Source: an uncultured Candidatus Saccharibacteria bacterium | GTDB lineage: Bacteria > Patescibacteriota > Dojkabacteria > B142 > JAFGMG01 | DNA: 64,000 nt | NCBI GenBank assembly: GCA_964444125.1 | Contig: CAYUFB010000002.1 | Location: forward strand, 9,075 to 73,074 | Direction: 5' to 3' | Part shown: positions 29,346 through 62,805 of the stretch, one piece after another | How positions within the stretch are numbered: the stretch's first letter is position 1 | Layout of the letters: every line of letters begins with the position of its first letter | Position numbers and translations under genes: made by a program | Notes under the pieces: model-generated | Told to the model about the DNA's origin: nothing | Database searches by the model: none | What the model saw: the letters and a program-made list of their open reading frames with translations, nothing else

Positions 29346-29383
29346 AGCTCTTTGTCGTATTTTTACTTTTTATCAAATATATT

Positions 29384-30911: not shown

Positions 30912-30958
30912 AAAATAAAATTTAAGTGTCAATTTTCAATCCTATCAAAGGAGTTTGT

Positions 30959-31618
30959 TTACCTCACTTCCACTAAATCCCACCAAAGAATTAGGCGTTC
31001 TTTGAGGCCATTATTACATGTCTGCATAGTAAGTGTTGGGGTATCAGATTGGCTTGTATAAACACTTGTTTCGCTTGGTTCAACAATTTTTGAAGTTCTA
31101 AACGAATATGTGTAAGTTATTCCGTTGTAATAAATATAGGCAATATCCCCTGGTTTGATCTTATCAAGATTTGCAAAGAAGCCGTTTTGTTTGCCATCAT
31201 AGTTTGACCTGTGTGCAAACAAATACACATTACCGTCTTTTGTTGCCTCATCAGGAAGAAGTGTGAACTTACCATGTGCAATATATTGATCTAGGACAGG
31301 TATATATTCTTCTTTGTATCTTGGGTCCGTATTTGCCCAGATATCGTGTTTGAGATTAATTGAGGGGATTTCTAGAGCGAAATTCGCATAAGTTTCTTCA
31401 GTCAGATTAGTTTCATTATTGGCAGTCGTTTCTGCAAGAACAGGCACTGAAAGGCTATCATTAAGTAAAAAACTATTATTTGCTGTTTTAGATTCTTCAG
31501 TGTGTTCTTCATCAACAGTACTTTCTACTTGTTGATTAATACCAGTAACTAAATTTAGCAAAATATTGCCAAATAATACTATTAGTATTAAATTTGAAAG
31601 AATAATTAATTTTCGCAT
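30959..31618 (-). CDS. Sortase-family transpeptidase with an N-terminal TM anchor.
   Basis: Catalytic signatures LFAHRS (His), LTMQTCNNG (TLxTC Cys) and a following Arg (KERL). Confidence 0.8.
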   Translation of the reverse strand: MRKLIILSNLILIVLFGNILLNLVTGINQQVESTVDEEHTEESKTANNSFLLNDSLSVPVLAETTANNETNLTEETYANFALEIPSINLKHDIWANTDPRYKEEYIPVLDQYIAHGKFTLLPDEATKDGNVYLFAHRSNYDGKQNGFFANLDKIKPGDIAYIYYNGITYTYSFRTSKIVEPSETSVYTSQSDTPTLTMQTCNNGLKERLILWWDLVEVR

Positions 31619-31753
31619 ATCACTATTATATATCTACCTCAATTATATCATTATTAAGTCATTTTCTTGAAATTTAAACAGTACTTCTGTTATCATTAAG
31701 CATTGCCCCAGATGTTATTTGTATGGGGCTTTTTTATTTCATTTTTCTTTCTC

Positions 31754-32509
31754 ATGGAAAATTCACAGCAAAATGGTTCAGAAAAGAAGGTTTTAGTTGT
31801 TGCAAACCCAGAGCTCAAATCTCAAGATATACTTGCTTTAGGTGCATTATTGCATATCCTGAAAGAGGGAAAAGAAAAGGTGGAAATACTAACTCTAGGC
31901 AAGGTCAATGAAAAAAAGGCTGAATTGCTTCCTGAAGGTGTCGATGCAGTCAATGAGCTTGCAGGCCAGAAATTTTTGATACAGTTTGTTTCGCAAGAAG
32001 ATTCAGTCGAGAATGTCCAATGGAATCAAGATAACAAAGATCTAAATCTATATATCACAATGAAGCAAGGAGATTTCAAGCCAGAGAAGATGAAATTTGA
32101 AGCCTTAGGTGGAAACTATGAGAAAATTTATGCTCTAGGCATTACGTCAATTGACCAGTTAGCACCTGCAATAAACGATGGTGTTAGATATATTTTCAAA
32201 GATACTGAAATTGTAAGTTTTGGTGCTACATTAAAAGCTGATGGCGCCAAGATCAAGGCACAAGAAAATGAGAAATTTGTCTCGACAGGGGAAGAAGTTT
32301 ATAAATATGCAAAAAATACTGGCAAAAAAATTAGTACTGATGCAGCGAATTACATTTTATCTTCAATCCTATCTTCAACTGACGGATTTAAGTTGTCGAT
32401 TAATGATGCCCAGACATTTATAACTTGTGCCGAACTAACTAAAATTGGTGCAGATATTAAACAAGCAAATTCATTAGTAACGAAATTTAGCGAAAAAACA
32501 ACTAAATGA
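31754..32509 (+). CDS. NrnA-like DHH-domain protein with degenerate catalytic motifs. ATG 31754 is the likely start.
   Basis: KKVLVVANP...ILALGALLHIL and AANYILSSILSSTDGFKLSINDAQTFITCAELTKIGAD match the DHH fold, but the DxD and DHH motifs are absent. Confidence 0.55.
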   Translation: MENSQQNGSEKKVLVVANPELKSQDILALGALLHILKEGKEKVEILTLGKVNEKKAELLPEGVDAVNELAGQKFLIQFVSQEDSVENVQWNQDNKDLNLYITMKQGDFKPEKMKFEALGGNYEKIYALGITSIDQLAPAINDGVRYIFKDTEIVSFGATLKADGAKIKAQENEKFVSTGEEVYKYAKNTGKKISTDAANYILSSILSSTDGFKLSINDAQTFITCAELTKIGADIKQANSLVTKFSEKTTK

Positions 32510-33786
32510 TCAAAGAATTTTTAGAAATATCTAAAAAGGTTATTATTGTTACCGATCCAAACGCAGATTTTGATCAATTTGCCGGATTTATAGCACTTGC
32601 CAAATTTCTACGTGACGAGCAAAAGGAAGTGTCTCTTTTGTTCCCCAAAAACACCAAAACGAATTTGTTCCTTAAGTTGTTTCCAACTGAGGATATAAAA
32701 GTGATGGACAAAACAGCTTGTGATAGTTTTATTGTCAGTCTTAGAAAAAATGGTGCAGTTGTTAAAGAAGTTAAGTGGCAGGAAGATCAAGGAAAAATAA
32801 ATATATACGTAACAACACAAAAGGGAGATATCGACTCTGAAAATGTAAATATCAAGCCAAATATGAACGTATTCGACGCAATTATATTATTTGGAATAGA
32901 GGATCTGGAGAAAGCTAAGAATTATTTTGCATTAGAAGATTCGTTTTTTAATAAAGGCAAGACTATTCAAATAGGCAATCTTCACAAGGACCAAGGGGCG
33001 TATAAATTCAACGAGGTAAGTGATATATATTCAGTTTTAGTTTATAAATTGGCGCATGATCTTGGTATAAAAATATCTGGGATGATCCAAACAGACCTAC
33101 TTTCTGGAATCCTTTGGAAGACTAAGGGGTTGTTTAGAGTATCAGATAAATCAGTAGTTGAGGTTATCTGTGAACTATCCAAGTCACAAGCAAATATCAA
33201 AGCAGCCCAAGATAAGGCCTTTAGACAAAATACAATGCAAGATATGCAAATACTTGATTTGGTTATAAAGAATTTGAATATTAATTCAGATAACGTTGCT
33301 TACAGTGTCATTCATAACGCTCAGACAAAAGGCGTCAATCTTGATTTCATTATCTCTTCAAATTGGCACCAGCTAGATAAATTAAAAAATGTAGACTATG
33401 GATTTGTATTATTTGAGTATGCTGATCATGTAAAGGGGCTGGTATTTAGTTCCGGAATAATCGATTTAAATGAAATTCTGACTGAGTTTAAAAGTCATGG
33501 CGATGAGTATGAGAGGTATTTCCAGACAGACAAGAAGATTGAAGAAGTTAAGGAACTATTACTAAAGGCGAAGAAGGACAATAAATCAGCACCTGTAGAA
33601 ATTATTAAAGGTGAAAAAAAGCAAGAGGAGAAGAAAGCTACAAAAGAGGAGGGTGAAACAAAAACAAACTACGATCCATTAGCCCCGGCAAATGTACTGC
33701 CGGACCCACTCGCTTTGGAGAAGCTTGAAGATAATGACCAGAAATCTGGTTATAATCCACCCCCTCCAATTAATCCAGTAAATTAA
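32506..33786 (+). CDS. Second NrnA-like DHH/DHHA1-like protein. The DHH motif is lost and the C-terminal tail is proline-rich.
   Basis: VIIVTDPNADFDQFAGFIAL (motif I retained), QTDLLSGILWKTKGLFRV; tail YNPPPPINPVN. Confidence 0.55.
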   Translation: MIKEFLEISKKVIIVTDPNADFDQFAGFIALAKFLRDEQKEVSLLFPKNTKTNLFLKLFPTEDIKVMDKTACDSFIVSLRKNGAVVKEVKWQEDQGKINIYVTTQKGDIDSENVNIKPNMNVFDAIILFGIEDLEKAKNYFALEDSFFNKGKTIQIGNLHKDQGAYKFNEVSDIYSVLVYKLAHDLGIKISGMIQTDLLSGILWKTKGLFRVSDKSVVEVICELSKSQANIKAAQDKAFRQNTMQDMQILDLVIKNLNINSDNVAYSVIHNAQTKGVNLDFIISSNWHQLDKLKNVDYGFVLFEYADHVKGLVFSSGIIDLNEILTEFKSHGDEYERYFQTDKKIEEVKELLLKAKKDNKSAPVEIIKGEKKQEEKKATKEEGETKTNYDPLAPANVLPDPLALEKLEDNDQKSGYNPPPPINPVN

Positions 33787-39509: not shown

Positions 39510-39773
39510 ATGGAAAAAGAACTAAAAAAATTAATGAAAGCAAATAAAACATTGTTTTGGGATATATCAGAAGAGGCTCTAAATGGGCTTTCTCAAAATG
39601 CTGTGGTAACAAGGATTGTTGAATATGGAGATATGGGCTCTTTCAAGAAATTAGTTGACCTAAATGCAGATTTATTGAAGGATCTTGCAAATTCCCAAAT
39701 GCATAAAGGTAGAGTGAACTTGTCCAAAAGAATCATAAATTTTATAAACACATATTTTGAGTACAATTCATAA
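39510..39773 (+). CDS. Small hypothetical protein; putative partner or antitoxin of the downstream nucleotidyltransferase.
   Basis: 87-aa ORF overlapping the next gene by 17 nt. Confidence 0.4.
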   Translation: MEKELKKLMKANKTLFWDISEEALNGLSQNAVVTRIVEYGDMGSFKKLVDLNADLLKDLANSQMHKGRVNLSKRIINFINTYFEYNS

Positions 39774-40368
39774 GCAAGTTTTAAATGATAAACAACTTGA
39801 GCTACTTCCTCTACTACATAAGTTTTATAAATTTTATTTAGCAGGAGGTACTGCTTTGGCTCTCCAAATTGGGCATAGGAAATCTATTGATTTTGATTTG
39901 TTTTCAAAAGAAGAAATAGACAAAAATGCAATATTAAAAGTACTTGACCAACGAAAGGTTAATCAGATTATTGTTGATAGTATTGACGAATTCACGTTTG
40001 TTTACGATGGGGTAAAATTGACATTTTTAAATTTTCCGTTCCGGATAGAGGAGTTTGTTGATTTAGAATTTGTAAAAGCTGTTGATTTTCTTACGATTGC
40101 TGCTATGAAAGCATATGCCCTGGGTAGACGTGCTAAGTGGAAAGATTATGTTGATATTTATTTTATTATTCAAAAGGAATCCATTAATTCTATTATTCAC
40201 AAAGCAGAGGAACTTTTTGGAAATTTATTCTCAGAGAAGCTTTTTCGTTCTCAGCTTTGTTATTTTGAGGACATTGATTATTCAGAGAAGGTTGACTTCG
40301 TAGCAGATCACGAAGTTAACGATGAACAGGTCAAGGAAACATTGAAGCGGATTGCTGTGACTTTCTAA
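39757..40368 (+). CDS. Nucleotidyltransferase-fold protein of the AbiEii/AbiGii toxin type.
   Basis: YLAGGTALALQIGHRKSIDFDLF matches the GGTAL...hR.S.DhD signature of AbiEii-family nucleotidyltransferases. Confidence 0.5.
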   Translation: MSTIHKQVLNDKQLELLPLLHKFYKFYLAGGTALALQIGHRKSIDFDLFSKEEIDKNAILKVLDQRKVNQIIVDSIDEFTFVYDGVKLTFLNFPFRIEEFVDLEFVKAVDFLTIAAMKAYALGRRAKWKDYVDIYFIIQKESINSIIHKAEELFGNLFSEKLFRSQLCYFEDIDYSEKVDFVADHEVNDEQVKETLKRIAVTF

Positions 40369-46721: not shown

Positions 46722-47663
46722 TTGAGTATGAAAAAATATTTGTGTTTATTGTTGATATTGATAGTGGTTGGGTTCGGATCATTTGCAAATATGGTTTTGG
46801 CACAGGAGGCGTCTGATATAATACGGCTAACTTGTACTGAAATCTATGGGAAAAACTTAGAAAGACTTGAATGTAGCGATGATTCAATCTGTAATAGTGA
46901 AAAAAGTTACTACTTGGATAATCATGATGGCAAGTGCGAGATCGCTGCTGGTGATTGTAGGCCAGGCTAACTTGTATGTAAAAATGCTGAATCTATACAA
47001 GGTTTTTTCGAATATTGTTGTGATACAAATCCATCATCTCTGTTTGATCCTAATAACACGAATATTCCTATTGAGGATAGGGTATCTTGTAATGATGATA
47101 AATTGAAAAAGTCAATTAGTGCTGAAAGTAGTCTTGATCAGGGGATGAAGGTAAATAATTGTAGGTCATTGTCTAGTGCAGAAGATGTAAACAATATTAC
47201 GAAATGCGATTTTGAACATTTTTGCTCAATTGATAATTCTCCATATTGTTGTGATTATACCCCACCAGGCACGCAAGTAGTAGATTCAGTCTCAGAAGAC
47301 TCATTTAAGTGGTGTAAGGATATGGATGGAGAAGAATTGCAGAGATGTTCGGAATGTATAGGAACAAGATCAAATCCAACAGGGGCGATATGGACGGAGC
47401 TTGGATGTATTGACCCATCTCCAGCAGGGATCATAACGAGGATATTCTAGATAGGTATAGGAATTATGGGAGGAGTGATAATAATCAGGTTGATACAGAT
47501 TTCGTTGTTATACTTGAAAGAAGATGCGCAGAGTATAGAGGAGGCAAGAGATATGCTAACAAGTTTGATAATGGGATTAATATTATTGGTAGGAGGAGTA
47601 GTGTTATTACAATTTGTGGGAGTAAATATCCTAGGACTTCCTGAGGGTTATCTTGGAGGTTAA
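46722..47663 (+). pseudogene. Decayed paralog of the hairpin-protein family. One reading frame is broken by an in-frame TAA (46968-46970) and an in-frame TAG (47448-47450).
   Basis: Signal peptide, Cys-rich ectodomain, the conserved NPTGAIWTELGCIDPSPAGIITRIF segment and the two-TM hairpin are all in one frame. TAG 47448 corresponds to CAG in the intact paralog at 59148. Confidence 0.6.
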
Positions 47664-50427: not shown

Positions 50428-51510
50428 ATGAGCACTGCTGAATCAACTCCTGATCCAAGTTTGGCTATTCAAGAAGCGCCGGGATTGGATATTGTAGCGC
50501 CTCCAGAGATACCAGTATCTTCAGTAAATCCTCGAATTGAGACGCATTCAGCAACAACTCAGATTGGATCTCGGACTGCAATAAAATATATTGATAGATC
50601 AGATATGCCAGCTGCAGAAGCAGAAAGAGCCCTAAAGGTAAATTTGGCGCTAACAAAACACGCTGTGATTTCTGATCAAGATATTGCCAATGCACTTGAT
50701 AAAGAAATGGTAAAAAAAGAGTTGATGAGGCTTGACCGCGGTGCGACAATAATTGATCGAATAAAAGAGAGTGTAACAATGCCAGATTTCAAAGATAAGC
50801 TCAAAAAGCTCGCTTGGAATGGTTTGAAATATGGCTATTGGGGATTTTTTGCATATGGAGTACTTACAGGTACAAGCCCTATTGGAGTAGTTAAAGATAT
50901 TGTCAGTATACCTGGTAGAATAGGGGATTTGGTTAATACGGGTGCAGACAACTTAATTAGCTTTCTTGGTTTGGAATCTAAGCCTGCGGGAGGTCCCCAG
51001 AATACATCAGGCGACATACTTCAGTCAAAGATTCCATCTGGAAGACTATTTGATACGCCGGTATTTGATGATGATGGAGAAATGACTAATAAAGGTGGGA
51101 CATTTTTCAATCTGTTTAAGCCACTTTTGGGAAAGGATCTAGCAACTTCATTGACAAAAACAGTAGGTACACCTTTTGTCGGAATATTTGGTTCTCTTGC
51201 ACAAAATACGAAGTATCCTGTTGAAGGGAAGTGGGGACCTTTTTTGGCTTATCCAGCGGTTTATTATGGAGGTAAGAAGCTTGGTCTATGGAATGAATTA
51301 TATACAAGACTTAAAGGAGATAGTACAGGTAACTTAAATCAAATGAAGAGACAAGAAATTGAAGCATTGAAAGAAAAAGCAAGAAATGAACTACTCTCAG
51401 GAAACTGGGAAGGTTATTCAGAGATTAGACTTGCCATTGATAATATAGGTGAAAGATATAAAGGAATTGAAAATCAATTAATTCGCCAACGTAGGGCTTT
51501 AGTGGCATAA
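50428..51510 (+). CDS. Hypothetical protein downstream of ftsZ.
   Basis: 360-aa ORF, 18 nt after the ftsZ stop. Confidence 0.5.
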   Translation: MSTAESTPDPSLAIQEAPGLDIVAPPEIPVSSVNPRIETHSATTQIGSRTAIKYIDRSDMPAAEAERALKVNLALTKHAVISDQDIANALDKEMVKKELMRLDRGATIIDRIKESVTMPDFKDKLKKLAWNGLKYGYWGFFAYGVLTGTSPIGVVKDIVSIPGRIGDLVNTGADNLISFLGLESKPAGGPQNTSGDILQSKIPSGRLFDTPVFDDDGEMTNKGGTFFNLFKPLLGKDLATSLTKTVGTPFVGIFGSLAQNTKYPVEGKWGPFLAYPAVYYGGKKLGLWNELYTRLKGDSTGNLNQMKRQEIEALKEKARNELLSGNWEGYSEIRLAIDNIGERYKGIENQLIRQRRALVA

Positions 51511-51517
51511 CAAATTT

Positions 51518-51982
51518 ATGTTAAATCTAGTTGTATTAGAACAATTAATCAAATTTAGTATCCCTGATAAATCATTGCAGGATAGGTATATCAAGGGGAT
51601 CTCTGCTGCAATTCAGGATCTTTTTTTCAATTTGTTGAGTATCTTTCTAATTGGGTCTGTCAAAGACAGATTAGCGCTAGAGGGGTTTATTGACCTAGTC
51701 AATAAGTTAGAAGAAGATTTTGATCCAACAGATATGGAAAGAACCAGAGATTGGTTAGAAACAAATATAGATCTAGATACGGATGCTTTTATGGATGAAT
51801 ATATAAGTAGGGTAGATAAAATGCAGCTAGACCTTATCAAAATCTTCTCAAAGAATATAACAGAAGAGCAAAAAATAGAATTAATTAATATAATTGATAA
51901 ACAATTAATAGAATTAGAAAAGAACAGAGAAGAAGTTGATACGATGAAAGAAGCCCTAGAGGTTTTAAGATTTAATCAATAG
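51518..51982 (+). CDS. Hypothetical acidic protein.
   Basis: 154-aa ORF, co-directional with ftsZ. Confidence 0.45.
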   Translation: MLNLVVLEQLIKFSIPDKSLQDRYIKGISAAIQDLFFNLLSIFLIGSVKDRLALEGFIDLVNKLEEDFDPTDMERTRDWLETNIDLDTDAFMDEYISRVDKMQLDLIKIFSKNITEEQKIELINIIDKQLIELEKNREEVDTMKEALEVLRFNQ

Positions 51983-52844
51983 GTCTTGCAATAGCTACAA
52001 ATCTTTTTGCATTATTCCCATTTGGGTAACAGGTAAAAAGGGTCAGTGTAGATTTGTTCTTTTGTCCTGTGATGATTGATACATCTTCTGGCTTGACGAT
52101 TTTGGTTTGCACAACTCTGTATTTATGGGTTTGGCCTTCGATTTCTATGCTTACCTCATCTCCAATCTTGATTTCACTTAGTTTCGAGAAGGCGGCCGTG
52201 ATATCTTTGGTCCTAGAATAATAATCTCCTCCAGCACTGTGTCCATATATAACAATATTATTATTAATATCGGAAATAGGAAGGCTCGTACCTTTGAAGT
52301 GGGCTAGAGCACCTTTTAGGGCTTCTTGATATGCGCTTTCAACTCCACTTTCCACATTTGGTTTTACGGGTAGGGAGTTTAATTCCAATGAAGGGATTGA
52401 AATTTTGAAATTGTTTTTGTATTCAAGGCTGACAGGGTCATTTTGCAATACATGTTGAGATAGGGCGTCTTTGGTCAATTCCTTAAAATATTCAGATCCC
52501 GGGTTTGAAAGATATGTCTCTTTGGGTCGTATTGAATCTCCTTTGACAAGTTCCGGTCTACCACTTTCATAATAACCAGAAATCTCTCTTGCTCTCTGTT
52601 TCATTTCAGGAAAGATCTGCCTGGAAAGGATTATGCTGCCTGCAATGATAAACAATGAAGGGATCAAAATCCTTGCAAGCGTTGAAGTTTTTATCAAGTT
52701 ATTGAAATCATTTCGAATACCCACAAGCAGATCCCATAATGTCGTTGGTGGGATTTCTTCTTTTTCGATTTCAATTTCTCTACTATAAATCTCTCCGGGG
52801 TCACGAAATTTCACAGCTCTTTTTTTGTAACTCTTTAGAGGCAT
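51972..52844 (-). CDS. Sortase-family transpeptidase, second copy, with a TM anchor.
   Basis: IVIYGHSAGG (His), TLTLFTCYP (TLxTC Cys) and a downstream Arg. Confidence 0.8.
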   Translation of the reverse strand: MPLKSYKKRAVKFRDPGEIYSREIEIEKEEIPPTTLWDLLVGIRNDFNNLIKTSTLARILIPSLFIIAGSIILSRQIFPEMKQRAREISGYYESGRPELVKGDSIRPKETYLSNPGSEYFKELTKDALSQHVLQNDPVSLEYKNNFKISIPSLELNSLPVKPNVESGVESAYQEALKGALAHFKGTSLPISDINNNIVIYGHSAGGDYYSRTKDITAAFSKLSEIKIGDEVSIEIEGQTHKYRVVQTKIVKPEDVSIITGQKNKSTLTLFTCYPNGNNAKRFVAIARPID

Positions 52845-55286: not shown

Positions 55287-55670
55287 TTGAATCAAAGCTA
55301 TGTTAGCATGAGAAAAGGAAAACTTATGAACATGATTTTGGATTTTTTTAAAAAATATATTTTTGGATTTTTTGCGTGGTGGTATTTAGTCAAAGGCCGT
55401 GAGGTGGTTGATTATTTTTCTCGAACGATTCTGAAATATTTCGTTAGATTGAATATTGGGCCAATGCTTGGGAACCTCTTTGCTCCAATGTTCCAAGACA
55501 AATCACTTACGGGTAGGTTTATTGCATTTCCAATAAGATTGATTTGGGGTCTTGGGGGATTGATTATTGAATTAATAATAATCGCTATTGGTTTAGTCTT
55601 TCTGCATATATATTTCCTTTTGCCAATAGCAGTCATTTATCAGATAGTTACATTTGTAGTGCTTAAATGA
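55287..55670 (+). CDS. Small polytopic membrane protein, first gene of the operon. The start may be ATG 55326.
   Basis: Hydrophobic helices; its stop overlaps the Clp-like start by 4 nt (ATGA). Confidence 0.5.
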   Translation: MNQSYVSMRKGKLMNMILDFFKKYIFGFFAWWYLVKGREVVDYFSRTILKYFVRLNIGPMLGNLFAPMFQDKSLTGRFIAFPIRLIWGLGGLIIELIIIAIGLVFLHIYFLLPIAVIYQIVTFVVLK

Positions 55671-58243
55671 AGATAGTTAACAAAAAATTAAAAATTGGTA
55701 AATACAAGGAAATGGAGGTTTTTGTTGATTGGGCATACCTTCAAAAGGGTAGAGGACTTAGAAAAAAAGAAGATCTACTGCAACTTGCTTTTGGGCGGTT
55801 CTTGTTTGTTATTGCTGTTATAGCAATGACAATTATAACTATTGCCCAAATATCACTTGGTAATTTCATTGTTTTTGAGGCAATCAAAAACGACTCACAA
55901 ATTAGTTTGGTCTTTTGGCTTGTTTTAGCTTTGTTTCTTTATGCTTCGTATCTACTTCGTGATAGGTCCAAGTTTTTTGATACTCTGGATCTGAAGGCAT
56001 TGACTAAATTGGCAAAAGATATTGAAGATAATAATAGCCCAAAAGAAGTTGAAATTCTGGATTTCGTCGATTATGACGTATTAAATACCTTAGATAAATT
56101 GCTTGAGAATAATCAGGAAAATATTTATGAGAATTTAATGATTGATTTACTTGAATTACAAGATGTTGGTCAGTTAATCAACAGGCTTGGGATTCAAAAA
56201 GAAATATTGCTGAACGAAATTGGGCAATTAGATATGACAATAGAAGGTGATAAGGTTTATCAAATTAATAAACTGCTATATCAATCATTTGTCATGGGGC
56301 TTGATTATAAATTTAGTTTTATTGGTGAATGGATAATTTTCTTGAAATTAGCTCTCGATGAATATAACCAGGTTTTTATGAAATTAGGAATTACAAAAGG
56401 AACTTTATTATCTGTTCTGGAGTGGACAAAGGCGCAGGCAATGGGTAATAGATATAGGAAATTATGGAAATATAAAGCATCTCTAAAACCAAGAAGCACT
56501 GTCAATCGAAGCTATACATCAGCACACACACCTACTTTAAATAAATATTCTAGAGATTTGACCAGGGAAGTAATTGATGGAGAATTTAGTTATGCGTTAA
56601 GTAGAGAGACTGAAATTGCTGATGTGATTAGGTATTTGAAGCCAGAAAAAGGTGCTGTATTGTTACTTGGTGAAGCTGGTGTAGGAAAGACCACAATCCT
56701 AAAAAGTATCGCAGTGAAGATGGTGGTAGAGGATGTCCCTTCAAACCTGAAAGATAAGAGACTTGTGGAATTTGATTTTCACCGTGCCGTGACGCAAGCA
56801 CTAGATACCTCAAAGCTTAGAGCTTTAATTGAAGATATTATAGTTGAGGTTGGCAAATCCAAAAATGTTGTATTGGTTATTGACGACTTGGATGAATTGA
56901 TTGGATTGAAAGATGATATTTCAGATGAAATTGTCTCAACTTTGCATAAAGCGTTGTCTAATAATTCAATTAGTCTTGTTGCTACTTCATCAAATGAGGG
57001 GTATATAAAATCTATCAAGCCAAATACGCAGCTAGCAAATATTTTTGATGTTGTGCGTATTGATGAGCCATCACCAGAAATTGCTCTACAGATAATATTT
57101 GACGAGAGATCTAAGCTTGAGGATATGTACAATATCAAAATTCAATTTGATGCCTTGAAATCTGCTATTGAGCTTACTGATAGATATGACAAAACAAGGG
57201 TCTTCCCATTTAAGGCAATTGACACATTAGAAGATGCTTGTGTCTTGGCTCTTGAAGAGGGACTAGGTTTTGTTTCAGCTTCTCAAGTTGAGGCTGTGGT
57301 TAGCAAAGATGCAGGCATCAAGGTCGGGAGACTTGATGAGACTGAGGGGCAGAAACTACTGCAACTTGAAGATAGGATGAAACGCAGAGTGATCGGGCAG
57401 GATAACGCTATAAAAGCAGTAGTTTCTGCCCTGAAAAGAGCTAGGGCAGGTCTAGTATCAAAAAATAAACCTCTTTCGTCATTCCTGTTTTTTGGCCCAA
57501 CCGGTGTGGGCAAAACTGAAGTGGCGAGAACTTTGGCTGCTGTTTATTTTGGTGATGAGAAATTGATTACTAGAATTGATATGTCTGAATTTCAAGAAGA
57601 GAAAAATGTCTCAAGGTTGATTGGTTCGTCTGATGAAGATGGTTTTGTGGGAGGGCAATTGACTGAAAAGGTGAGAGAGCATCCGTTTTCTCTAATTCTC
57701 CTGGATGAGATTGAGAAAGCAAACCCCAAAGTCTTAGATTTATTCTTGCAGGTTTTAGATGAAGGTCATATCAAGGATGGTCTAGGAAGGGTCGTGGATT
57801 TCAAAAATACTATTATTATTGCGACGTCAAATATTGGATCTAAATCTATTGCTGATAGTTTCTCAAAAGAAATTTCATATGAAAAAACTGAAAGAATGGC
57901 GAAGGAAGAATTGAAAAAGTATTTAAGGATTGAATTTATTAACAGATTTGATAAAGTGATAATGTTTAAACCATTATCCAAAATTGAGATAGAAAAAATT
58001 GCTGGATTGATGATGAACCAGGTCGTAGATAGATTGAAAGAGCAAGGGATAGGTTTGAAATTTGAAGCTCAATTATTAAGCCAGCTTGCACAAAAAGGTT
58101 ATAGTCTAATGTATGGAGCAAGAGAAATGCGAAGGGTTATTCAAGATGAGGTCGAGACGAGAATTGCTGATATGATAGTGGCAGGCAAGCTTAAATCAGG
58201 GGATACTTTAACTATTAAGTCCTTGGAGGAATTTGAAGTATGA
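55667..58243 (+). CDS. Membrane-anchored ClpC/ClpB-like double AAA+ ATPase: two N-terminal TM helices, Clp_N-like repeats, then D1 and D2.
   Basis: D1 LLLGEAGVGKTTI with VVLVIDDLDE. D2 FLFFGPTGVGKTE, IDMSEF, ILLDEIEKANPKV, sensor GAREMRRVIQ, and PTLNKYSRDLT. Hydrophobic helices lie at about residues 45-95. Confidence 0.8.
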   Translation: MKIVNKKLKIGKYKEMEVFVDWAYLQKGRGLRKKEDLLQLAFGRFLFVIAVIAMTIITIAQISLGNFIVFEAIKNDSQISLVFWLVLALFLYASYLLRDRSKFFDTLDLKALTKLAKDIEDNNSPKEVEILDFVDYDVLNTLDKLLENNQENIYENLMIDLLELQDVGQLINRLGIQKEILLNEIGQLDMTIEGDKVYQINKLLYQSFVMGLDYKFSFIGEWIIFLKLALDEYNQVFMKLGITKGTLLSVLEWTKAQAMGNRYRKLWKYKASLKPRSTVNRSYTSAHTPTLNKYSRDLTREVIDGEFSYALSRETEIADVIRYLKPEKGAVLLLGEAGVGKTTILKSIAVKMVVEDVPSNLKDKRLVEFDFHRAVTQALDTSKLRALIEDIIVEVGKSKNVVLVIDDLDELIGLKDDISDEIVSTLHKALSNNSISLVATSSNEGYIKSIKPNTQLANIFDVVRIDEPSPEIALQIIFDERSKLEDMYNIKIQFDALKSAIELTDRYDKTRVFPFKAIDTLEDACVLALEEGLGFVSASQVEAVVSKDAGIKVGRLDETEGQKLLQLEDRMKRRVIGQDNAIKAVVSALKRARAGLVSKNKPLSSFLFFGPTGVGKTEVARTLAAVYFGDEKLITRIDMSEFQEEKNVSRLIGSSDEDGFVGGQLTEKVREHPFSLILLDEIEKANPKVLDLFLQVLDEGHIKDGLGRVVDFKNTIIIATSNIGSKSIADSFSKEISYEKTERMAKEELKKYLRIEFINRFDKVIMFKPLSKIEIEKIAGLMMNQVVDRLKEQGIGLKFEAQLLSQLAQKGYSLMYGAREMRRVIQDEVETRIADMIVAGKLKSGDTLTIKSLEEFEV

Positions 58244-59358
58244 GAAAGGTTTTTATTTTTGTTGCATTGCTTTTACTCATATCCTTCACTGGATTAATAA
58301 AGATTAAGGCTCAAAACAGCATATTTAACAGGAATTCTACACATGCTTCTTATGCGACATATGTTTTTGATTGTGCGGGAAGCGAGATTGAATTAGCGGT
58401 GCCAAATGTTGTGCCTTCTTCTTATGATAGTTTTGAATATTATGTTGAAAGGAGTGCAGGAGATGAAATAGTTGTCTTAATATATAAGCAATTAAATAGT
58501 TCTCCTCAGTTGGATGCGATAAGATCTTTTTCGACTTCTGGTACCGGAACTATTCCGTTAGACATATTGGATTACCAAACCGGTAGTATTCAATATAGAG
58601 TTGGTATGGCTATGAATGAGGTCTGTACTCTTCAAGGTAGCACGGATACAACCGTTTCTATTACTATTACAGACAATATAAAAACCACTTCGGACTGTCC
58701 TAATGGTGAATTTCTCCAGATTTCTAATGGAAGAGTTGAAAATAGTAGGGTAATTGTTGATATAAATGCTTGTGTTGATAGTTCGTCAAGGTATTCATTT
58801 ATAGATTTAACAGATAATCCTACCTCAATCATGGATGAAATAGGCACTGGAGAAATTGCAAGAGAATTGACAATAAGGAAATACGATAGTCCTATACGAG
58901 TAATTGTTGAAGGATATATAAATGGTTCTATGATTAAAAGATATGCAATTGACTTAAACGTTACAACAGAAATAATTGAATCGGTCTCGGAAGACTCATT
59001 TAAAGGATGTGGAGAGATGGGGGAGGATGAGAAGGCAGCGTGTATAAGATGTGTAGGTACTAAATCAAATCCAACAGGGGCGATATGGACGGAGCTTGGA
59101 TGTATTGACCCATCTCCAGCAGGGATCATAACGAGGATATTCCAGATAGGTATAGGAATTATGGGAGGAGTGATAATAATAAGGTTGATACAGATATCAT
59201 TATTGTATTTAAAAGATGATGCACAGAGTTTGGAAGAAGCGAGAGATATGTTGACAAGTTTGGTAATGGGATTGATATTGTTGGTAGGAGGGGTAGTGTT
59301 GTTACAATTTGTAGGAGTCAATATCTTGGGCCTACCTGAAGGATATCTTGGAGGTTAA
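58240..59358 (+). CDS. Array member A (372 aa): signal peptide, ectodomain, conserved Cys-containing juxtamembrane segment, and a C-terminal two-helix hairpin.
   Basis: The start overlaps the Clp-like stop (ATGA). C-terminus is IFQIGIGIMGGVIIIRLIQISLLYL-KDDAQSLEEARDMLTS-LVMGLILLVGGVVLLQFVGV. Confidence 0.6.
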   Translation: MRKVFIFVALLLLISFTGLIKIKAQNSIFNRNSTHASYATYVFDCAGSEIELAVPNVVPSSYDSFEYYVERSAGDEIVVLIYKQLNSSPQLDAIRSFSTSGTGTIPLDILDYQTGSIQYRVGMAMNEVCTLQGSTDTTVSITITDNIKTTSDCPNGEFLQISNGRVENSRVIVDINACVDSSSRYSFIDLTDNPTSIMDEIGTGEIARELTIRKYDSPIRVIVEGYINGSMIKRYAIDLNVTTEIIESVSEDSFKGCGEMGEDEKAACIRCVGTKSNPTGAIWTELGCIDPSPAGIITRIFQIGIGIMGGVIIIRLIQISLLYLKDDAQSLEEARDMLTSLVMGLILLVGGVVLLQFVGVNILGLPEGYLGG

Positions 59359-59421
59359 TGCTATTAGCTTGACCCCGAGTACTTGTAACTGTAGACTGAT
59401 AATTAAATATTAAATTGATCA

Positions 59422-59790
59422 ATGATGTCATTTCAAAGATTGGTTGTTTTCATGCTAATTTCATTAAGTTATCTAGCTCCTATGGCTGTTATGGCAGAGA
59501 CATTGGACACTTCAATAGGTACTATCCAAAGTCCATTGGGAGATACTGATATGTTTGGGCTCATTGAGAGACTTGTAGGATATGTTAGGCCAATTATTGC
59601 AATCACATTCCTTTTTGTAATTATTTATGGAGGTTATACCAGGATGACCGCAGCAGGGGATCCGGAAAAAGAGAAGAAGAGCAATTCAATTCTTACAGCA
59701 GGGGTAATTGGTTTTGCTATTATTGTCCTCGCTCCTGCGGTAGTTAGATTAGTTAGCTCACTTATAGGAATACAAGGAGATGTTGTCTAA
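59422..59790 (+). CDS. Array member B: a bare 122-aa VirB2/TrbC-like pilin-type subunit (signal peptide plus two-helix hairpin).
   Basis: Signal peptide ...APMAVMA; TM1 IIAITFLFVIIYGGY, loop TRMTAAGDPEKEKKSN, TM2 AGVIGFAIIVLAPAVV. Confidence 0.6.
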   Translation: MMSFQRLVVFMLISLSYLAPMAVMAETLDTSIGTIQSPLGDTDMFGLIERLVGYVRPIIAITFLFVIIYGGYTRMTAAGDPEKEKKSNSILTAGVIGFAIIVLAPAVVRLVSSLIGIQGDVV

Positions 59791-60535
59791 ATATACAAAA
59801 ATATTAAGCTTTATCACCGTACTAGTTGCGGGTTATTTTTTGTTTGTTACTGGCGTTCAGGCACAGAATTTTTCTGAATGTATTAGGGATAAAACAGTTA
59901 ATCAAACTGGTTATGTCTGCAGTTTGTGTGGTGATTCTGCCATAGATGCCGAAAGGGAATCAAATTGTGATAAACGTGTAATTGAAGGATATAAATGGGA
60001 TGCAAGTACCTGTAGTTGTATAAACACAAAGAGTAGTTGTTCTGGGATTTCTGAAAATGTTCAAAAGAGTCGCAAAGTTCAATGTTTTGCCAATGGGAAT
60101 ATGTGGAATTATTCAAGTTGTGAATGTATAAATAGTCAAACAGCAATGCCAATTGTTATGTCGCCTACCGTTGATAATGGATTAGGTAATGGATTGGACG
60201 ATACTACTAATAGTATCATCGGTATTTTTGATCGGGTCTTTTTCAAGACTAATTTCGATGGATCTGTCGACAACGTCTCTGAACTTATCAGAATGGCGTT
60301 TATTATTATTTTCATGATTATTGCTATTGTGGCATTTTTCTTAGGTATTTATGGAATGTATCTCTATAGTACAGCATTTGATGATGACGAGAAGGTTTCC
60401 AAAGCACAGAAGATTTTCAAAGATGCTTTGATTGGACTATTTATTGCTATTGCAGGTATTGTGCTTGTGCAGGTAGTCGCGATATTTTTGGGAGTAGATA
60501 GTGCTGATCTTTTTACTTTTAATGTAAGCAATTAA
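59780..60535 (+). CDS. Array member C (251 aa): signal peptide, Cys-rich ectodomain (12 Cys), and a C-terminal two-helix hairpin.
   Basis: AAGGAG ribosome-binding site inside the end of B. Hairpin IIFMIIAIVAFFLGIYGMYLYS-TAFDDDEKVSKAQKIFKD-ALIGLFIAIAGIVLVQVVAIF. Confidence 0.6.
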   Translation: MLSKYTKILSFITVLVAGYFLFVTGVQAQNFSECIRDKTVNQTGYVCSLCGDSAIDAERESNCDKRVIEGYKWDASTCSCINTKSSCSGISENVQKSRKVQCFANGNMWNYSSCECINSQTAMPIVMSPTVDNGLGNGLDDTTNSIIGIFDRVFFKTNFDGSVDNVSELIRMAFIIIFMIIAIVAFFLGIYGMYLYSTAFDDDEKVSKAQKIFKDALIGLFIAIAGIVLVQVVAIFLGVDSADLFTFNVSN

Positions 60536-60545
60536 AATAGAATTT

Positions 60546-61127
60546 ATGAAGAAAATTTTTTTCATTTTCGCAATAATTTTTATTTCTCTTGGCTCGTTGG
60601 GGCAGGTATTTGCACAGACTCAAGAGGAGGTTCAAGAAAATGGGGTTAATATTCAAGTTGGAGAGAATACCTTAAATCTAGATATCTTTGACCCAACGGG
60701 AGGTTGGGGGAATGTAGGAATTCTTGCACTATTGGGTTTGATTGGACAATTAATTTTTGGTTTACTTGTAGTCGTTTGGATATTTATAGCTTTGCTATCT
60801 GGTTTGAAAATAGTAAGAAGTCAGGGCAAAGCAGAAGATATTGAATCTGGCACTGGAGCTATAGGCAATATGCTTAAAGGTATTACGTTTGGTCTCCTGT
60901 TTTTTGTAGCAGTGTCTGTTATTGGTATGATCACGGGTGCCGGCACTGTCTTTGAATGGTCTGATAATTTGCAGGAATGCTCATGTGAAGCATCAGTTGA
61001 AGGAACTCCTTGTTATACATATAAATTCCAGGCTGAGGCCAGTGTGGAAGAAGAAACTGTTTGGGCATGTGAGAGAGATCAGCATGGCTCAAAATTCGGC
61101 AAAGGATGGTTTTCTAGTTTGGATTGA
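60546..61127 (+). CDS. Array member D (193 aa): signal peptide, two-helix hairpin, and a C-terminal Cys-containing domain.
   Basis: GILALLGLIGQLIFGLLVVVWIFIALL-SGLKIVRSQGKAEDIESGTGAIGNMLKG-ITFGLLFFVAVSVIGMI. Confidence 0.6.
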   Translation: MKKIFFIFAIIFISLGSLGQVFAQTQEEVQENGVNIQVGENTLNLDIFDPTGGWGNVGILALLGLIGQLIFGLLVVVWIFIALLSGLKIVRSQGKAEDIESGTGAIGNMLKGITFGLLFFVAVSVIGMITGAGTVFEWSDNLQECSCEASVEGTPCYTYKFQAEASVEEETVWACERDQHGSKFGKGWFSSLD

Positions 61128-61179
61128 CTTTTGTTTGTTAAATCGTTATCCTGATTTTATATATTAATTTAAATTCAAA

Positions 61180-61731
61180 ATGAAAAAGTACCTTACAAAA
61201 GGAGCTTTGGTGTTAGTAGTTTCGTATTCGTTCGCTAATGTGGCATATGCACAAAGTCTTCTACCTGCATTTATGGATGAGTTTTTAAATGATTGGAATA
61301 ATACAAATTCTGTCGATAAGATTAGTGGATTTATCAGGCTTGCTTTGACACTTGCATTTGGTGTTGTAATCCTTGCTGCTGTAGCATATTCTATTATGGC
61401 TGCTATCAAATACATCAAGAGTCAAGGAGATGCTGGTCAAGTGGAAGAAGCGAACAAAGCTATCAAAGCAATATTTCAAGGAGTTGTAGCTATGTTTGTA
61501 GGTATTATTGGGGTTGTTTTGGTATTCTTCATATTCAATGTCGCTCTTCCAGATCCAAGTATACCTTCTATTTGTGTGAAATGTCCAGAAAGTAATACTT
61601 GTAGGGTTTGTAGTGAAGGTAAACAAGAAAAGGGTGGAACGGATTATGTTTTGTCGGGTAATCCAAAATCGCCAGCAACAGAAGATGAGTGTAATCCAAA
61701 AACAGATACTATAGATTGTGAAGATTATTAA
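61180..61731 (+). CDS. Array member E (183 aa): signal peptide, two-helix hairpin, and a C-terminal Cys-rich domain (10 Cys).
   Basis: LALTLAFGVVILAAVAYSIMAAI-KYIKSQGDAGQVEEANKAIKAI-FQGVVAMFVGIIGVVLVFFIF, then CVKCPESNTCRVCSEG. Confidence 0.6.
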   Translation: MKKYLTKGALVLVVSYSFANVAYAQSLLPAFMDEFLNDWNNTNSVDKISGFIRLALTLAFGVVILAAVAYSIMAAIKYIKSQGDAGQVEEANKAIKAIFQGVVAMFVGIIGVVLVFFIFNVALPDPSIPSICVKCPESNTCRVCSEGKQEKGGTDYVLSGNPKSPATEDECNPKTDTIDCEDY

Positions 61732-61761
61732 TTGTTTTGCTGGGTTAATTAAAGATAATAG

Positions 61762-62805
61762 GTGAAAGCAATTTTATCGGTTCGTTTTATAATCATATTT
61801 TTGTTAATTGCCTTCTTGCTGGTAGGTTCGGTTTTTGCTCAATTTGGCTCTGGCGATGAACCTGCCAGGCTTCGTGACCTTGAGCCTCTTTTGGTGCAAC
61901 TGATTTATGTGATATGGGCACTTGGTGGGATAATATTTACAGCTGCGTTGATGTTTATAGGGTTTCTCTACATGACAAGTGCTGGAGATCCTCAAAAACA
62001 AGAGGCTTTGAAGAAACGCGCGACAAATTGGCTTTTTGGACTGATTCTGTTTTTCGCGGGATACCCATTGGTGTTGACTGCGTACAATGTTTTAGATATA
62101 GGTCAATCAAATCCGGATTGTTATAAATCAGTTTCAACTCCTGGGTTTCATTTTTTCTTCCCCGATGTATGTACTGATCCACTAGAGGGAACAGAGTTTC
62201 TTGTTGGTCAAACGGTTCAGAAAGCAAATTTAACTGAAGAAGAATTTATACAGAAACTTATAGATGGAAAAAGATGTGTCTTAAATGATAAATATGCTCC
62301 CGTAGAAAGCTATATATTTTCAAAAGATGATTATAAATTGTATAAGTACAAAATGGAAAGCAATGGGAATTGCTTGAAATATGATATTGTAGTACGTAAT
62401 TCAGTAGATATGAGGAATAGAGAGTATTTATATGTTTTCAGAGATGGTAAAATATTTGAGGAAGATGGGACATTCTATGTTTACGGAGGCAACTGTAGTA
62501 ATGATGGTATAAAAAACACGGGCAGGCAAGATATGTGTTGTTTGGGTGATCAGGGAAAACATTTCGTTGTTCCTTCCAGGACAGCTTCTGAAAATGATGA
62601 GCAGGGAGGATCCAAACGTCAGTATGTCAGAATGCTTGATGGGACAATAACATATTTTTGGTATGATGCAAAAGGAAATGATATTGGTGCGTGTGATTGT
62701 GAAAGGGATGGAAATACAACTGGGAGTGGTACTACTTGTAAATCTTTTTCAGGTGTAAGAGTATCTTTAGATTTATCTAATATCAGTGGGGTCCAAGTCC
62801 CATAG
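61762..62805 (+). CDS. Array member F (347 aa): signal peptide, two-helix hairpin with a TSAGDPQKQE loop, and a large C-terminal Cys-rich ectodomain.
   Basis: LIYVIWALGGIIFTAALMFIGFLYM-TSAGDPQKQEALKKRATNW-LFGLILFFAGYPLVLTAY. At least 12 Cys lie downstream. Confidence 0.6.
   Translation: MKAILSVRFIIIFLLIAFLLVGSVFAQFGSGDEPARLRDLEPLLVQLIYVIWALGGIIFTAALMFIGFLYMTSAGDPQKQEALKKRATNWLFGLILFFAGYPLVLTAYNVLDIGQSNPDCYKSVSTPGFHFFFPDVCTDPLEGTEFLVGQTVQKANLTEEEFIQKLIDGKRCVLNDKYAPVESYIFSKDDYKLYKYKMESNGNCLKYDIVVRNSVDMRNREYLYVFRDGKIFEEDGTFYVYGGNCSNDGIKNTGRQDMCCLGDQGKHFVVPSRTASENDEQGGSKRQYVRMLDGTITYFWYDAKGNDIGACDCERDGNTTGSGTTCKSFSGVRVSLDLSNISGVQVP

Follow-up and report, generated by a model that had tools for sequence, protein, structure and literature searches.

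Background

Arrays of 2–11 genes coding for PF18895/VirB2-like pilins have been published for Patescibacteria (PMC12102498, PMC10633639, PMC12857230). In Southlakia epibionticum, six such pilins, SEML1_0014-0019 (Wang et al. 2023, PMC10633639; Quinonero-Coronel et al. 2025, PMC12102498), form an essential array that operates alongside a VirB4 cluster, with no Clp gene next to it; in Tn-seq these pilins are scored GD/ES/ES. Canonical systems depend on cytoplasmic ATPases to pull VirB2 out of the membrane (PMC9259494). About 80% of Patescibacteria assemblies carry VirB4, among them the Dojkabacteria assemblies in the accessible portion of the published table. Of the 1,948 VirB4-positive assemblies with a pilin gene, roughly 800 have that gene at a distance from virB4.

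Here we analyse an operon located in a 64,000-nt stretch of DNA, referred to as the window, from a 96-kb contig, in which an array of this kind follows the genes for a small membrane protein, g1, and for a membrane-anchored Hsp100-type AAA+ protein, TM-Clp. An earlier note had presented the operon as an undescribed system. Since 2–11-gene PF18895 arrays, that of S. epibionticum included, are already on record in Patescibacteria, this does not apply to the array type; the new element is the linkage of the g1 and TM-Clp pair to the pilin array.

Operon organization

The ORF check of the window agrees with the gene layout first described. Eight ORFs lie on one strand (+), in the order small membrane protein, 858-aa double-AAA+ Clp-like protein and six signal-peptide hairpin proteins, g3 to g8. 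Distances between successive genes, from g1 to g8, are -4, -4, +63, -11, +10, +52 and +30 nt. Both 4-nt overlaps have the sequence ATGA: at 55667 the stop of g1 overlaps the start of TM-Clp, and at 58240 the start of g3 overlaps the TM-Clp stop. RpoD/AI-2E flank the operon in the window, and DnaA is found at 141-1595.

The g1 ORF opens at TTG 55287 (127 aa), but ATG 55326, which gives 114 aa and coincides with the public gene call, is probably the true start, placing the gene at 55326..55670 (+). The protein matches no Pfam or NCBIfam family and features two conserved motifs, WWY and LPM..NLFVPL.QD.S..GR. A g1 HMM identifies a homolog directly upstream of every examined TM-Clp gene, pilin-less lineages included.

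The TM-Clp ATPase

TM-Clp (55667..58243, +) contains domains matching AAA, AAA_lid_9, AAA_2 and ClpB_D2-small. Its two strongly hydrophobic segments (residues 46-64 and 79-97) fall on long helices of the AlphaFold2 model (29-64 and 78-96), and the hydrophobic N-terminal helices are conserved across the family. Domains, hydropathy and model all bear out the original description of a double-AAA+ Clp/Hsp100 protein with two N-terminal TM helices; to the extent that hydropathy and modelling allow a judgement, the protein is membrane-anchored. In the model, the helices are preceded by a beta-hairpin (7-21) and followed, at about 112-271, by a divergent Clp-N fold, recognisable by structure.

The two ATPase rings differ. 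D1 is degenerate: Walker A is kept, while the DE Walker B, the KYRG pore loop and the Arg fingers are missing, and from these motif states D1 is judged catalytically dead. D2 is intact, with GPTGVGKT, LLDEIEKA, a GFVGG pore loop, NRFD and GAR, and its aromatic pore loop is retained in the array-linked clade.

D2 can be aligned from end to end with ClpB, ClpC and ClpA, at E-values down to 1e-113, and TM-Clp scores far under all NCBIfam equivalog cut-offs. In a rough NJ tree the TM-Clp family stands apart from ordinary Clp proteins, its array-linked members forming one subclade, and in one locus (L056) an ordinary Clp_N-bearing ClpB/C adjoins TM-Clp; because of these two observations we classify TM-Clp as a distinct paralog and not the housekeeping Clp. 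Neither an M-domain nor a ClpP-binding loop is present: lack of the former rules out ClpB and ClpC, and lack of the latter ClpA, ClpC and ClpX. An ordinary FtsH is encoded on the same contig.

The hairpin proteins

All six proteins carry an N-terminal hydrophobic leader and two more hydrophobic helices flanking a charged loop, and the alignment of the six modules holds throughout, g6 included, in line with the idea of one shared helix-loop-helix module. The A-Q-type leader end, originally attributed to all six, is present in five of them, while the 122-aa g4 features VMA-ET.

Two members have their ectodomain on the N-terminal side: g3 (58240..59358, +; 372 aa) joins a Cys-containing domain of about 260 aa to a hairpin at 296-355, and g5 (59780..60535, +; 251 aa) a 10-Cys domain to a hairpin at 172-235. 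In g6 (60546..61127, +; 193 aa), g7 (61180..61731, +; 183 aa) and g8 (61762..62805, +; 347 aa) the hairpin comes first, at 69-130, 58-119 and 48-108, respectively, and the C-terminal ectodomains, about 240 aa long in g8, contain 4, 6 and 10 Cys. As the earlier note had recognized, g4 (59422..59790, +) is essentially the module only, a minimal VirB2-like pilin precursor made up of leader and hairpin with the loop AAGDPEKEKK, and the ectodomains of the others are mostly Cys-rich (8, 0, 10, 4, 6 and 10 Cys from g3 to g8).

PF18895 (T4SS_pilin), whose gathering cut-off is 26.6 bits, matches g4 (40.5 bits), g5 (28.4) and g8 (34.9) above that value and g3 (12.4) and g7 (14.5) below it. Only g6 has no Pfam match; it was placed by alignment with the other five modules, and its orthologs and cross-type BLAST matches tie it to g7-type proteins. 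The scores of g4 against NF045849 (Mbov_0395 pilin-like; 37.8 bits, cut-off 40) and of g8 against PF04956 TrbC/VirB2 (21.5 bits, cut-off 27.9) are sub-threshold. Among 56 array ORFs, orthologs or paralogs from 10 loci, 40 match PF18895, and five of these also TrbC/VirB2; no other family recurs. These profiles identify the hairpin common to the six proteins as a pilin module of the VirB2/TrbC type, as first suggested, and the family as PF18895. The AlphaFold2 model of g4 features a helix (44-76), a loop and a second helix (81-115), with moderate confidence (pLDDT 66); Foldseek found no significant match for this model, an archaeal conjugation pilus ranking 7th (E = 6.8). Both points count against the reading preferred below.

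Array genes are orthologous one-to-one by position across loci. Orthologs of g4, with the conserved loop consensus TAAGDAEKEKK, are present in every array, positional orthologs of g3 in L002-L006, L012, L026 and L049, and those of g5, g7 and g8 in related loci. The six are distinct subunit types kept by position, one minimal pilin and five with ectodomains.

A search for further paralogs, using an HMM derived from the six modules of the window, translations and frame analysis, produced one more hairpin gene, between ftsQ and ftsA (46728..47663, +). The last 65 aa of its ORF score 64.5 bits, and over the final 390 nt it shares 84% identity with g3; this g3 paralog is interrupted by two in-frame stops, TAA at about 46971 and TAG at 47451, and is a probable pseudogene.

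Linkage of the pair to pilin arrays

In 11 independent related loci, the hairpin HMM identified 3–8 hairpin ORFs directly 3' of the orthologous TM-Clp; in L012, cut by a contig end, one ORF of g3 type and a single clear hairpin ORF are seen. No matches were found in 37 loci with ordinary Clp genes or with TM-Clp outside the array clade. The association is beyond chance. In a Dojkabacteria-centred clade, 14 assessable loci, the window included, have g1 and TM-Clp immediately ahead of the array, and the order g1, TM-Clp, array is shared by L002-L007, L012, L026, L049, L050, L055 and the P0195 locus, as expected for the single conserved unit initially proposed. In 10 of the 14 loci, again counting the window, the TM-Clp stop and the next start overlap by 4 nt. 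Flanking genes vary, being GroES-GroEL or RecA in other loci versus RpoD/AI-2E in the window.

The two-gene module is more widespread in Patescibacteria than the array-linked clade, and the earlier question whether the Clp-like gene always stands beside hairpin arrays has a divided answer: it does in the 14 loci, but sister lineages carry the pair without pilins (L008-L010, L056, L058, L059). There it is followed by a Glycos_transf_4 membrane enzyme gene (L056 and L059, the latter with a 4-nt overlap), by other secreted proteins (L008, L010) or by a convergent gene (L058). Since the pair also heads pilin-less operons, its substrate range may be general. It could then be a tethered chaperone or extractase found across Patescibacteria, serving broad clients alongside FtsH in membrane proteostasis; it would have no role specific to pilins and would stand near them solely through shared regulation with abundant envelope proteins. 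GroES-GroEL immediately upstream in L049, L050, L055 and L057 looks like a chaperone neighbourhood, and points the same way. So does SEML1_0701/0700, the apparent S. epibionticum equivalent of the pair, an equivalence drawn solely from the sizes of the genes, their overlap and their Pfam layout and not from sequence: it lies far from the pilin genes and, scored NE/NE/GD in Tn-seq, is dispensable early, with a growth defect only late. Broad proteostasis fits poorly, however, with the array-linked subclade, where linkage is kept down to about 24-36% identity and through several flank changes, with one loss (L058) among assessable loci, and with the tight overlap with the first pilin-type gene in most loci; we regard it as rather unlikely.

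ATPases and the motor

No T4SS core gene, VirB4, VirB6 and VirD4 included, is detectable in the window, as already noticed, and the 96-kb source contig yielded neither VirB4 nor VirB6. TM-Clp is the sole ATPase in the operon, its linkage to the array is conserved and its aromatic D2 pore loop is kept, all features that would suit an autonomous surface-filament or membrane-insertion system energised by TM-Clp instead of VirB4/VirB11, as the earlier note proposed. The proposal is not supported, because the pair exists without pilins, its apparent S. epibionticum counterpart is unlinked and non-essential, the source contig encodes a T4CP/VirD4-like ATPase (P0028) 9.2 kb downstream, shortly beyond the end of the window, and the Dojkabacteria in the accessible portion of the published table have VirB4. 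The wider distribution of VirB4 and of pilin genes distant from it, the S. epibionticum array, served by a VirB4 cluster, and the dead D1 also weigh against it. Moreover, Hsp100 rings thread their substrate to the cytoplasmic side, opposite to filament growth. We consider such a filament very improbable; a canonical T4SS elsewhere in this genome likely accounts for the pilins.

By analogy with ClpV and the T6SS sheath, TM-Clp might instead serve disassembly, depolymerising a VirB2-like structure from its base via the pilin loops and returning subunits to membrane or cytoplasm. The one active ring under the membrane, with its aromatic pore loop, and the conserved cytoplasmic pilin loop are consistent with such a retraction motor. 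Its purely analogical basis, the pilin-less lineages and the apparent, unlinked S. epibionticum pair count against it, and we consider it improbable.

Discussion

Taken together, the data are best read, with a probability of about 0.55, as a Patescibacteria-type VirB2-like pilin array joined to a g1/TM-Clp pair for pilin handling or quality control, which would not be the sole motor, with a VirB4-type T4SS encoded elsewhere; this is a better reading than a Clp-powered filament replacing VirB4. The array would be co-transcribed, and often translationally coupled, with g1 and TM-Clp in the Dojkabacteria-centred clade. Pilins would be exported by Sec, their leader cleaved, and inserted as helical hairpins, the short conserved charged loop being the sole cytoplasmic part and the fused, mostly Cys-rich domains lying outside the cell, whether N- or C-terminal. 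The six subunits presumably build a pilus or a channel-associated structure for host-cell contact. In TM-Clp, Clp-N may serve as substrate or adaptor domain, next to a non-catalytic D1 ring and an active pore-loop D2 ring under the membrane. Working close to the membrane as an unfoldase or extractase, TM-Clp would act on the pilins pooled there: seizing them by their cytoplasmic loop, or taking hold of precursors not yet assembled, it would clear subunits away, recycle them or pass them on. Polymerisation would most likely be powered by the VirB4-type T4SS of the lineage.

Among known systems, Hsp100/Clp proteins (ClpB, ClpA, ClpC, ClpV/TssH, Plasmodium HSP101) have the Clp-N fold, D1, D2 and D2-small in common with TM-Clp, which, like ClpV and HSP101, is genomically linked to a secretion-type apparatus. 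TM-Clp alone has the N-terminal beta-hairpin and two TM helices, a D1 without Walker B Glu, pore-loop Tyr and Arg fingers, and a dedicated small membrane partner, g1, and it differs from them also in the missing M-domain and ClpP loop. FtsH and Msp1/ATAD1 are likewise tethered by an N-terminal TM anchor, which keeps their one active AAA+ ring at the membrane, and the ring pulls membrane proteins out via its central pore. These are, however, classical-clade single-ring AAA proteins, FtsH with a protease domain, whereas TM-Clp descends from the Hsp100 proteins, has a dead D1 and lacks a protease.

VirB4, with VirB11, is also a cytoplasmic hexameric ATPase sited at the membrane; as a dislocase it has been proposed to pull hairpin pilins out of their membrane pool (Mace et al. 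2022, PMC9259494), and by analogy such extraction would be the most plausible job for TM-Clp. The two are unrelated: VirB4 is an FtsK/HerA-type P-loop ATPase, with no homology to TM-Clp, and acts via VirB3 and VirB6. Finally, the S. epibionticum array resembles that of the window: both consist of six tandem PF18895 hairpin proteins that diverge in sequence and carry signal peptides, both lie on the origin-proximal side of the chromosome, and both belong to a small-genome patescibacterium. In contrast to the S. epibionticum pilins of 103-185 aa, five of the six window pilins, which are up to 372 aa long, have sizeable ectodomains, and the window array, outside any VirB4/VirB6 cluster, lies behind g1 and TM-Clp in one operon.

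Gene block and genomic setting

All eight open reading frames of the block at 55287-62805 (+ strand) were found with the positions and lengths that the earlier note had assigned to them: a small membrane protein (g1), an 858-aa Clp-like ATPase (55667..58243, +), hereafter TM-Clp, and six hairpin proteins of 372, 122, 251, 193, 183 and 347 aa (g3 to g8). From g1 to g8, successive genes are spaced by -4, -4, +63, -11, +10, +52 and +30 nt, and both 4-nt overlaps read ATGA, as described; the start of g1 is probably the ATG at 55326, as in the public gene call. Leaders ending in A-Q, claimed for all six hairpin proteins, stand except in the 122-aa g4, where the leader ends in A-E. Consensus scans for promoters and terminators returned counts equal to the shuffled expectation, and are uninformative on co-transcription.

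The window opens with dnaA and dnaN and otherwise contains housekeeping genes. A seventh hairpin gene, a g3 paralog with hairpin, signal peptide and Cys-rich ectodomain, lies between ftsQ and ftsA (46728-47663, +). Over the last 390 nt it shares 84% identity with g3. Two in-frame stops (TAA and TAG) break it up, so that in the public gene call it appears as ORFs of 80, 101 and 65 aa; the gene is probably a pseudogene or an assembly polymorphism.

Each of two sortase genes (30959-31618 and 51972-52844, both -) is adjoined by proteins of 154-426 aa with no family match (regions 30078-33786 and 50428-52844), possibly surface proteins that depend on sortase. At 39757-40368 (+), amid cell-wall genes, there is an AbiEii-type nucleotidyltransferase toxin domain (type IV toxin-antitoxin), and at 29276-29797 (+) a Hsp20/alpha-crystallin gene. 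In Southlakia epibionticum, the pilin array has an essential Hsp20 gene as its immediate neighbor (Table S1, PMC10633639), a resemblance that may be a coincidence.

The hairpin proteins as T4SS pilins

The VirB2/TrbC-like module had been recognized correctly, but the family is a curated one, known as PF18895 (T4SS_pilin), which covers VirB2-like pilins of Patescibacteria and monoderm elements. Three of the six proteins, g4, g8 and g5, score 40.5, 34.9 and 28.4 bits, above the gathering cut-off of 26.6 bits; g3 (12.4) and g7 (14.5) fall below it, and g6 has no match in the HMM search. Module alignment and cross-type BLAST matches tie these last three to the other pilins. The six modules can be aligned over their entire length, and hydropathy and the module alignment reveal in all of them a leader and two hydrophobic helices separated by a short polar loop; in g4 orthologs the loop consensus is TAAGDAEKEKK. 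Built from only the six window paralogs, the AF2 model of g4 agrees, being a helix-loop-helix with pLDDT 66. In 10 loci, PF18895 matches 40 of the 56 array ORFs at E<=0.01, and beyond PF18895 and PF04956 no family recurs among them. By BLAST, g3 to g8 are each one-to-one positional orthologs across loci, indicating that the six are distinct, old subunit types and not the product of recent tandem expansion.

Profile comparison, favorable for PF18895, gave a different outcome for PF04956 (TrbC/VirB2), where all six proteins remain below the gathering cut-off of 27.9 bits, the best being g8 with 21.5 bits (E 2.7e-4), while g4 reaches 11.2; 5 of the 56 array ORFs match at E<=0.01. As judged from these profiles, the array pilins are related to PF04956, but are not members at curated stringency. 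The NCBIfam Mbov_0395 pilin-like model gave a sub-threshold match. A Foldseek search of the PDB with the g4 model, a weak test for a small helical hairpin of modest pLDDT with the leader included, returned no match at E<=0.001; ranked seventh was the Aeropyrum pernix conjugation pilus 8dfu (TM-score 0.69, target-normalized; E 6.8).

Such arrays are not new: 441 arrays of 2-11 VirB2/PF18895 genes have been published from 383 Patescibacteria assemblies (Quinonero-Coronel et al. 2025, PMC12102498), and by Tn-seq S. epibionticum cannot do without the pilins encoded in its T4SS cluster (Wang et al. 2023, PMC10633639). The terms Clp and AAA are absent from both papers, supplement search included, and nothing relevant was found in the literature either on a membrane-anchored bacterial Hsp100 or on a link of an AAA+ protein to these pilins.

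As the earlier note had stated for VirB4, VirB6 and VirD4, no T4SS core gene was detected in the window; neither were VirB4, VirB3 or VirB6 found on the 96-kb source contig. Of 3,035 Patescibacteria assemblies, 2,417 reportedly encode VirB4, and in roughly 800 of the 1,948 VirB4-positive assemblies having a pilin gene, this lies away from virB4 (PMC12102498). Both Dojkabacteria entries in the visible part of Table S1 of the same paper are VirB4-positive, and its preprint version counts Dojkabacteria among the T4SS-bearing groups.

A solitary gene for an 835-aa T4CP/VirD4-like ATPase is located just outside the window, about 9.2 kb beyond position 62805 (L052:19164-21122 / L053:10001-12508, on the source contig). 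The protein features DUF8128, TrwB_AAD_bind and DUF87 domains; in close relatives, which go by the names of T4SS coupling protein or DNA-binding protein, TraG/VirD4 domains are present as well. Its family is very large in Patescibacteria (3,384 matches at E<=1e-20), where T4CP homologs are reported to lie usually far from virB4, and not to be essential in S. epibionticum. The gene is followed by a XerC-like integrase, EF-P, FtsH and PolA. Residence of the array on a mobile element was considered and rejected: housekeeping genes (RpoD, SbcCD, FtsQAZ) lie on either side, GC content is uniform, about 35%, across the window, and the integrase sits beyond the T4CP gene.

TM-Clp, a membrane-anchored Hsp100

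TM-Clp has the general make-up of Hsp100/Clp proteins, with two AAA+ modules (D1 and D2) and matches to PF07724 AAA_2 (180 bits), PF10431 ClpB_D2-small (77), PF00004 AAA (66.6) and PF17871 AAA_lid_9 (36.8); PDB matches to ClpB, ClpC and ClpA range from E 1e-84 to 1e-113. By hydropathy, residues 46-64 and 79-97 form two strongly hydrophobic stretches, which coincide with two long helices in the AF2 model of residues 1-342 (pLDDT 74); the model also features a beta-hairpin. An N-terminal Clp-N (double repeat) domain is identified by structural match, which supersedes a hhalign profile test with a probability of 0.3.

Motifs were read from alignments to solved ClpB, ClpC and ClpA, and from the family alignment. 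D1 retains an intact Walker A, but the canonical DE of Walker B is replaced by IDD, LED, FEE or IDN, the pore loop is without KYRG, and LANIFD is found where the arginine finger sequence LERRFQ is expected; a D1 motif table shows that this degeneracy is common to the whole TM-Clp family. D2 is complete, with GPTGVGKT, LLDEIEKA, the aromatic pore loop GFVGG, NRFD and GAR. On these motifs, TM-Clp is best described as a complete Hsp100, comprising a membrane anchor, a substrate/adaptor domain, a predicted non-catalytic D1 and a predicted active D2. The charged N-terminus and a RDR motif after TM2 would fit a location of the entire ATPase in the cytoplasm.

These features set TM-Clp apart from the named Hsp100 groups. 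ClpB has a M-domain inserted in an active D1, whereas the alignment of TM-Clp with ClpB skips the M-domain region (ClpB residues from about 396 to 455, or as far as about 530 with other ClpB chains), and its D1 is without DE, KYRG and the RR fingers. ClpA and ClpC carry in D2 a ClpP-docking loop of the IGF/VGF type, in place of which TM-Clp has a gap in the alignment with ClpC. ClpV/TssH is defined by a T6SS gene neighborhood and an equivalog score, neither of which is found here: T6SS genes are absent from the window, and the score against ClpV TIGR03345 is 396 bits (cut-off 885), while those against ClpB TIGR03346 and ClpA TIGR02639 are 471.7 (cut-off 1232) and 409 (cut-off 993). The reading of TM-Clp as the ordinary ClpB/ClpC of the organism was rejected on the missing M-domain and ClpP loop and the inactive D1, and also because an ordinary Clp, bearing Clp_N, is divergently adjacent to a g1+TM-Clp pair in the related locus L056.

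A protein identical to TM-Clp is encoded on a JGI metagenome contig of 95,990 bp, and its closest named relatives are found in Candidatus Dojkabacteria (WS6), a Patescibacteria/CPR lineage; a cluster look-up for taxonomy contributed a single further Dojkabacteria label. A search with the N-terminal 298 aa over 1.84 billion representatives retrieved only 52 clusters at 50% identity; the family is small. A third homolog search, with the N-terminal alignment, produced no matches, its candidate list being apparently swamped. In a rough NJ tree all TM-Clp sequences separate from ordinary Clps, and the array-linked ones form one subclade, with one apparent loss.

Conserved linkage of TM-Clp to the array

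With a HMM built from the six window modules, 3-8 hairpin ORFs were detected directly behind the ortholog of TM-Clp in related loci L002-L007, L026, L049 and L050. L012, cut by the contig end, has a weak g3-type match and one clear hairpin ORF, L001 stops within the first array gene, and gene calls show the same order in L055 and in the P0195 locus; with the window and L001 counted, 14 array-linked loci are assessable. None of the 37 loci with an ordinary Clp, or with a TM-Clp outside the array clade, was matched by the hairpin HMM. A metagenome-wide synteny scan with the N-terminal/D1 alignment, run on generic Walker-A patterns, yielded ordinary Clp loci only, used solely as negative controls.

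The linked block is kept down to about 24% N-terminal identity, within flanks which vary: RpoD and an AI-2E transporter in the window, GroES-GroEL in L049, L050, L055 and L057, RecA in the P0195 locus. In 10 of the 14 loci the Clp stop and the next start overlap by 4 nt, which argues for one transcription unit with translational coupling. The array and the Clp-like gene are truly linked, and the linkage is conserved; the novelty is a conserved, clade-specific operon in which a pilin array of known kind is joined to a membrane-anchored Hsp100 module that is apparently undescribed.

The g1+TM-Clp pair beyond pilins

A g1 homolog was found by HMM directly upstream of every TM-Clp examined. The module is delimited by a g1-type gene lying immediately upstream of, or overlapping with, a Clp that has two TM helices at its N-terminus and a degenerate D1; g1+TM-Clp looks like a Clp branch that is specific to Patescibacteria and has not been described before. 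Whether the Clp-like gene always accompanies hairpin arrays had been raised as a check: it precedes the array in the 14 array-linked loci, but no pilins lie downstream of the pair in L008-L010, L056, L058 and L059. L008-L010 include Woykebacteria and MAGs with dubious labels. The L008, L009 and L014 MAGs are labeled "uncultured Gammaproteobacteria" and several MAGs "Candidatus Saccharibacteria", yet they have Patescibacteria-type genes and chromosomes of 0.76-0.9 Mb; such labels were judged unreliable, and were not used for taxonomic breadth.

In a sister clade the pair is followed by a Glycos_transf_4 membrane enzyme, of the polyprenyl-phosphate sugar transferase type, in L056 (8043-12313) and L059 (1843-5483); in L059 there is a 4-nt overlap between the Clp stop and this gene. 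In L049, L050, L055 and L057, which stand further off within the array-linked clade, GroES-GroEL is immediately upstream of the pair, preceded by a PilM/FtsA-like gene and an unknown protein of 617-701 aa, making a chaperone-rich neighborhood. The glycosyltransferase-coupled relatives and the GroESL neighborhood both support the main rival to a pilin-related function, namely a general role of TM-Clp in membrane proteostasis, its expression alongside abundant envelope proteins being no more than that.

S. epibionticum has a 384-nt gene, SEML1_0701, that overlaps with the 2583-nt SEML1_0700; the latter is listed as "AAA family ATPase", and its product matches AAA_2 and D2-small but not Clp_N. 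By gene size, overlap and domain layout, the two look like the same pair as g1+TM-Clp; they are located far from the pilins, and are scored NE/NE/GD in Tn-seq, versus GD/ES/ES for the pilins.

Possible role of TM-Clp

The observation that started this analysis is confirmed overall, and its pilin interpretation was right. The function proposed for the ATPase, as sole assembly motor of a new Clp-powered filament system, is not supported. Hsp100 proteins thread their substrates toward the cytoplasm, D1 is predicted to be inactive, TM-Clp has pilin-free relatives, and the S. epibionticum data likewise speak against such a motor.

A cleaved leader and two TM helices would place both pilin ends outside the cytoplasm, so that Cys-rich domains fused on either side would fit. 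The only pilin part facing the cytoplasm would be the short conserved loop, where the D2 ring of TM-Clp is expected to sit. In canonical systems, cytoplasmic ATPases must extract VirB2 from the membrane (PMC9259494). Taken together, loop position and canonical extraction suggest, as the most likely task of TM-Clp, the handling of pilins pooled in the membrane: it would extract, clear or recycle subunits, and possibly hand them on, with g1 perhaps acting as adaptor or anchor, while a VirB4-type machine encoded elsewhere would polymerize them. A stronger version, in which TM-Clp and g1 are a dedicated component of a VirB2-type pilus, namely a pilin dislocase or a retraction/recycling motor gripping the conserved hairpin loop on the cytoplasmic side, is doubtful, and we give it roughly one chance in five. 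As a motor of disassembly or retraction, TM-Clp would resemble ClpV.

VirB2-like pilin arrays are essential for epibiotic life in the one Patescibacterium tested, and a deeply conserved operon combining such an array with a membrane-anchored, single-active-ring Hsp100 provides a concrete, testable handle on them. It raises the questions of whether the unfoldase manages, extracts or recycles the pilin pool, of the nature of the g1+TM-Clp module, and of the energy source for turnover or retraction of VirB2-type pili, F pili included. Should the linkage reflect co-regulation only, the finding would reduce to one more member of a known pilin-array class and an unusual chaperone. Should TM-Clp instead be a dedicated pilus component, it would be the first Clp-family ATPase in a type IV secretion or conjugative-type pilus apparatus, with parallels in ClpV of the T6SS and HSP101 of PTEX.
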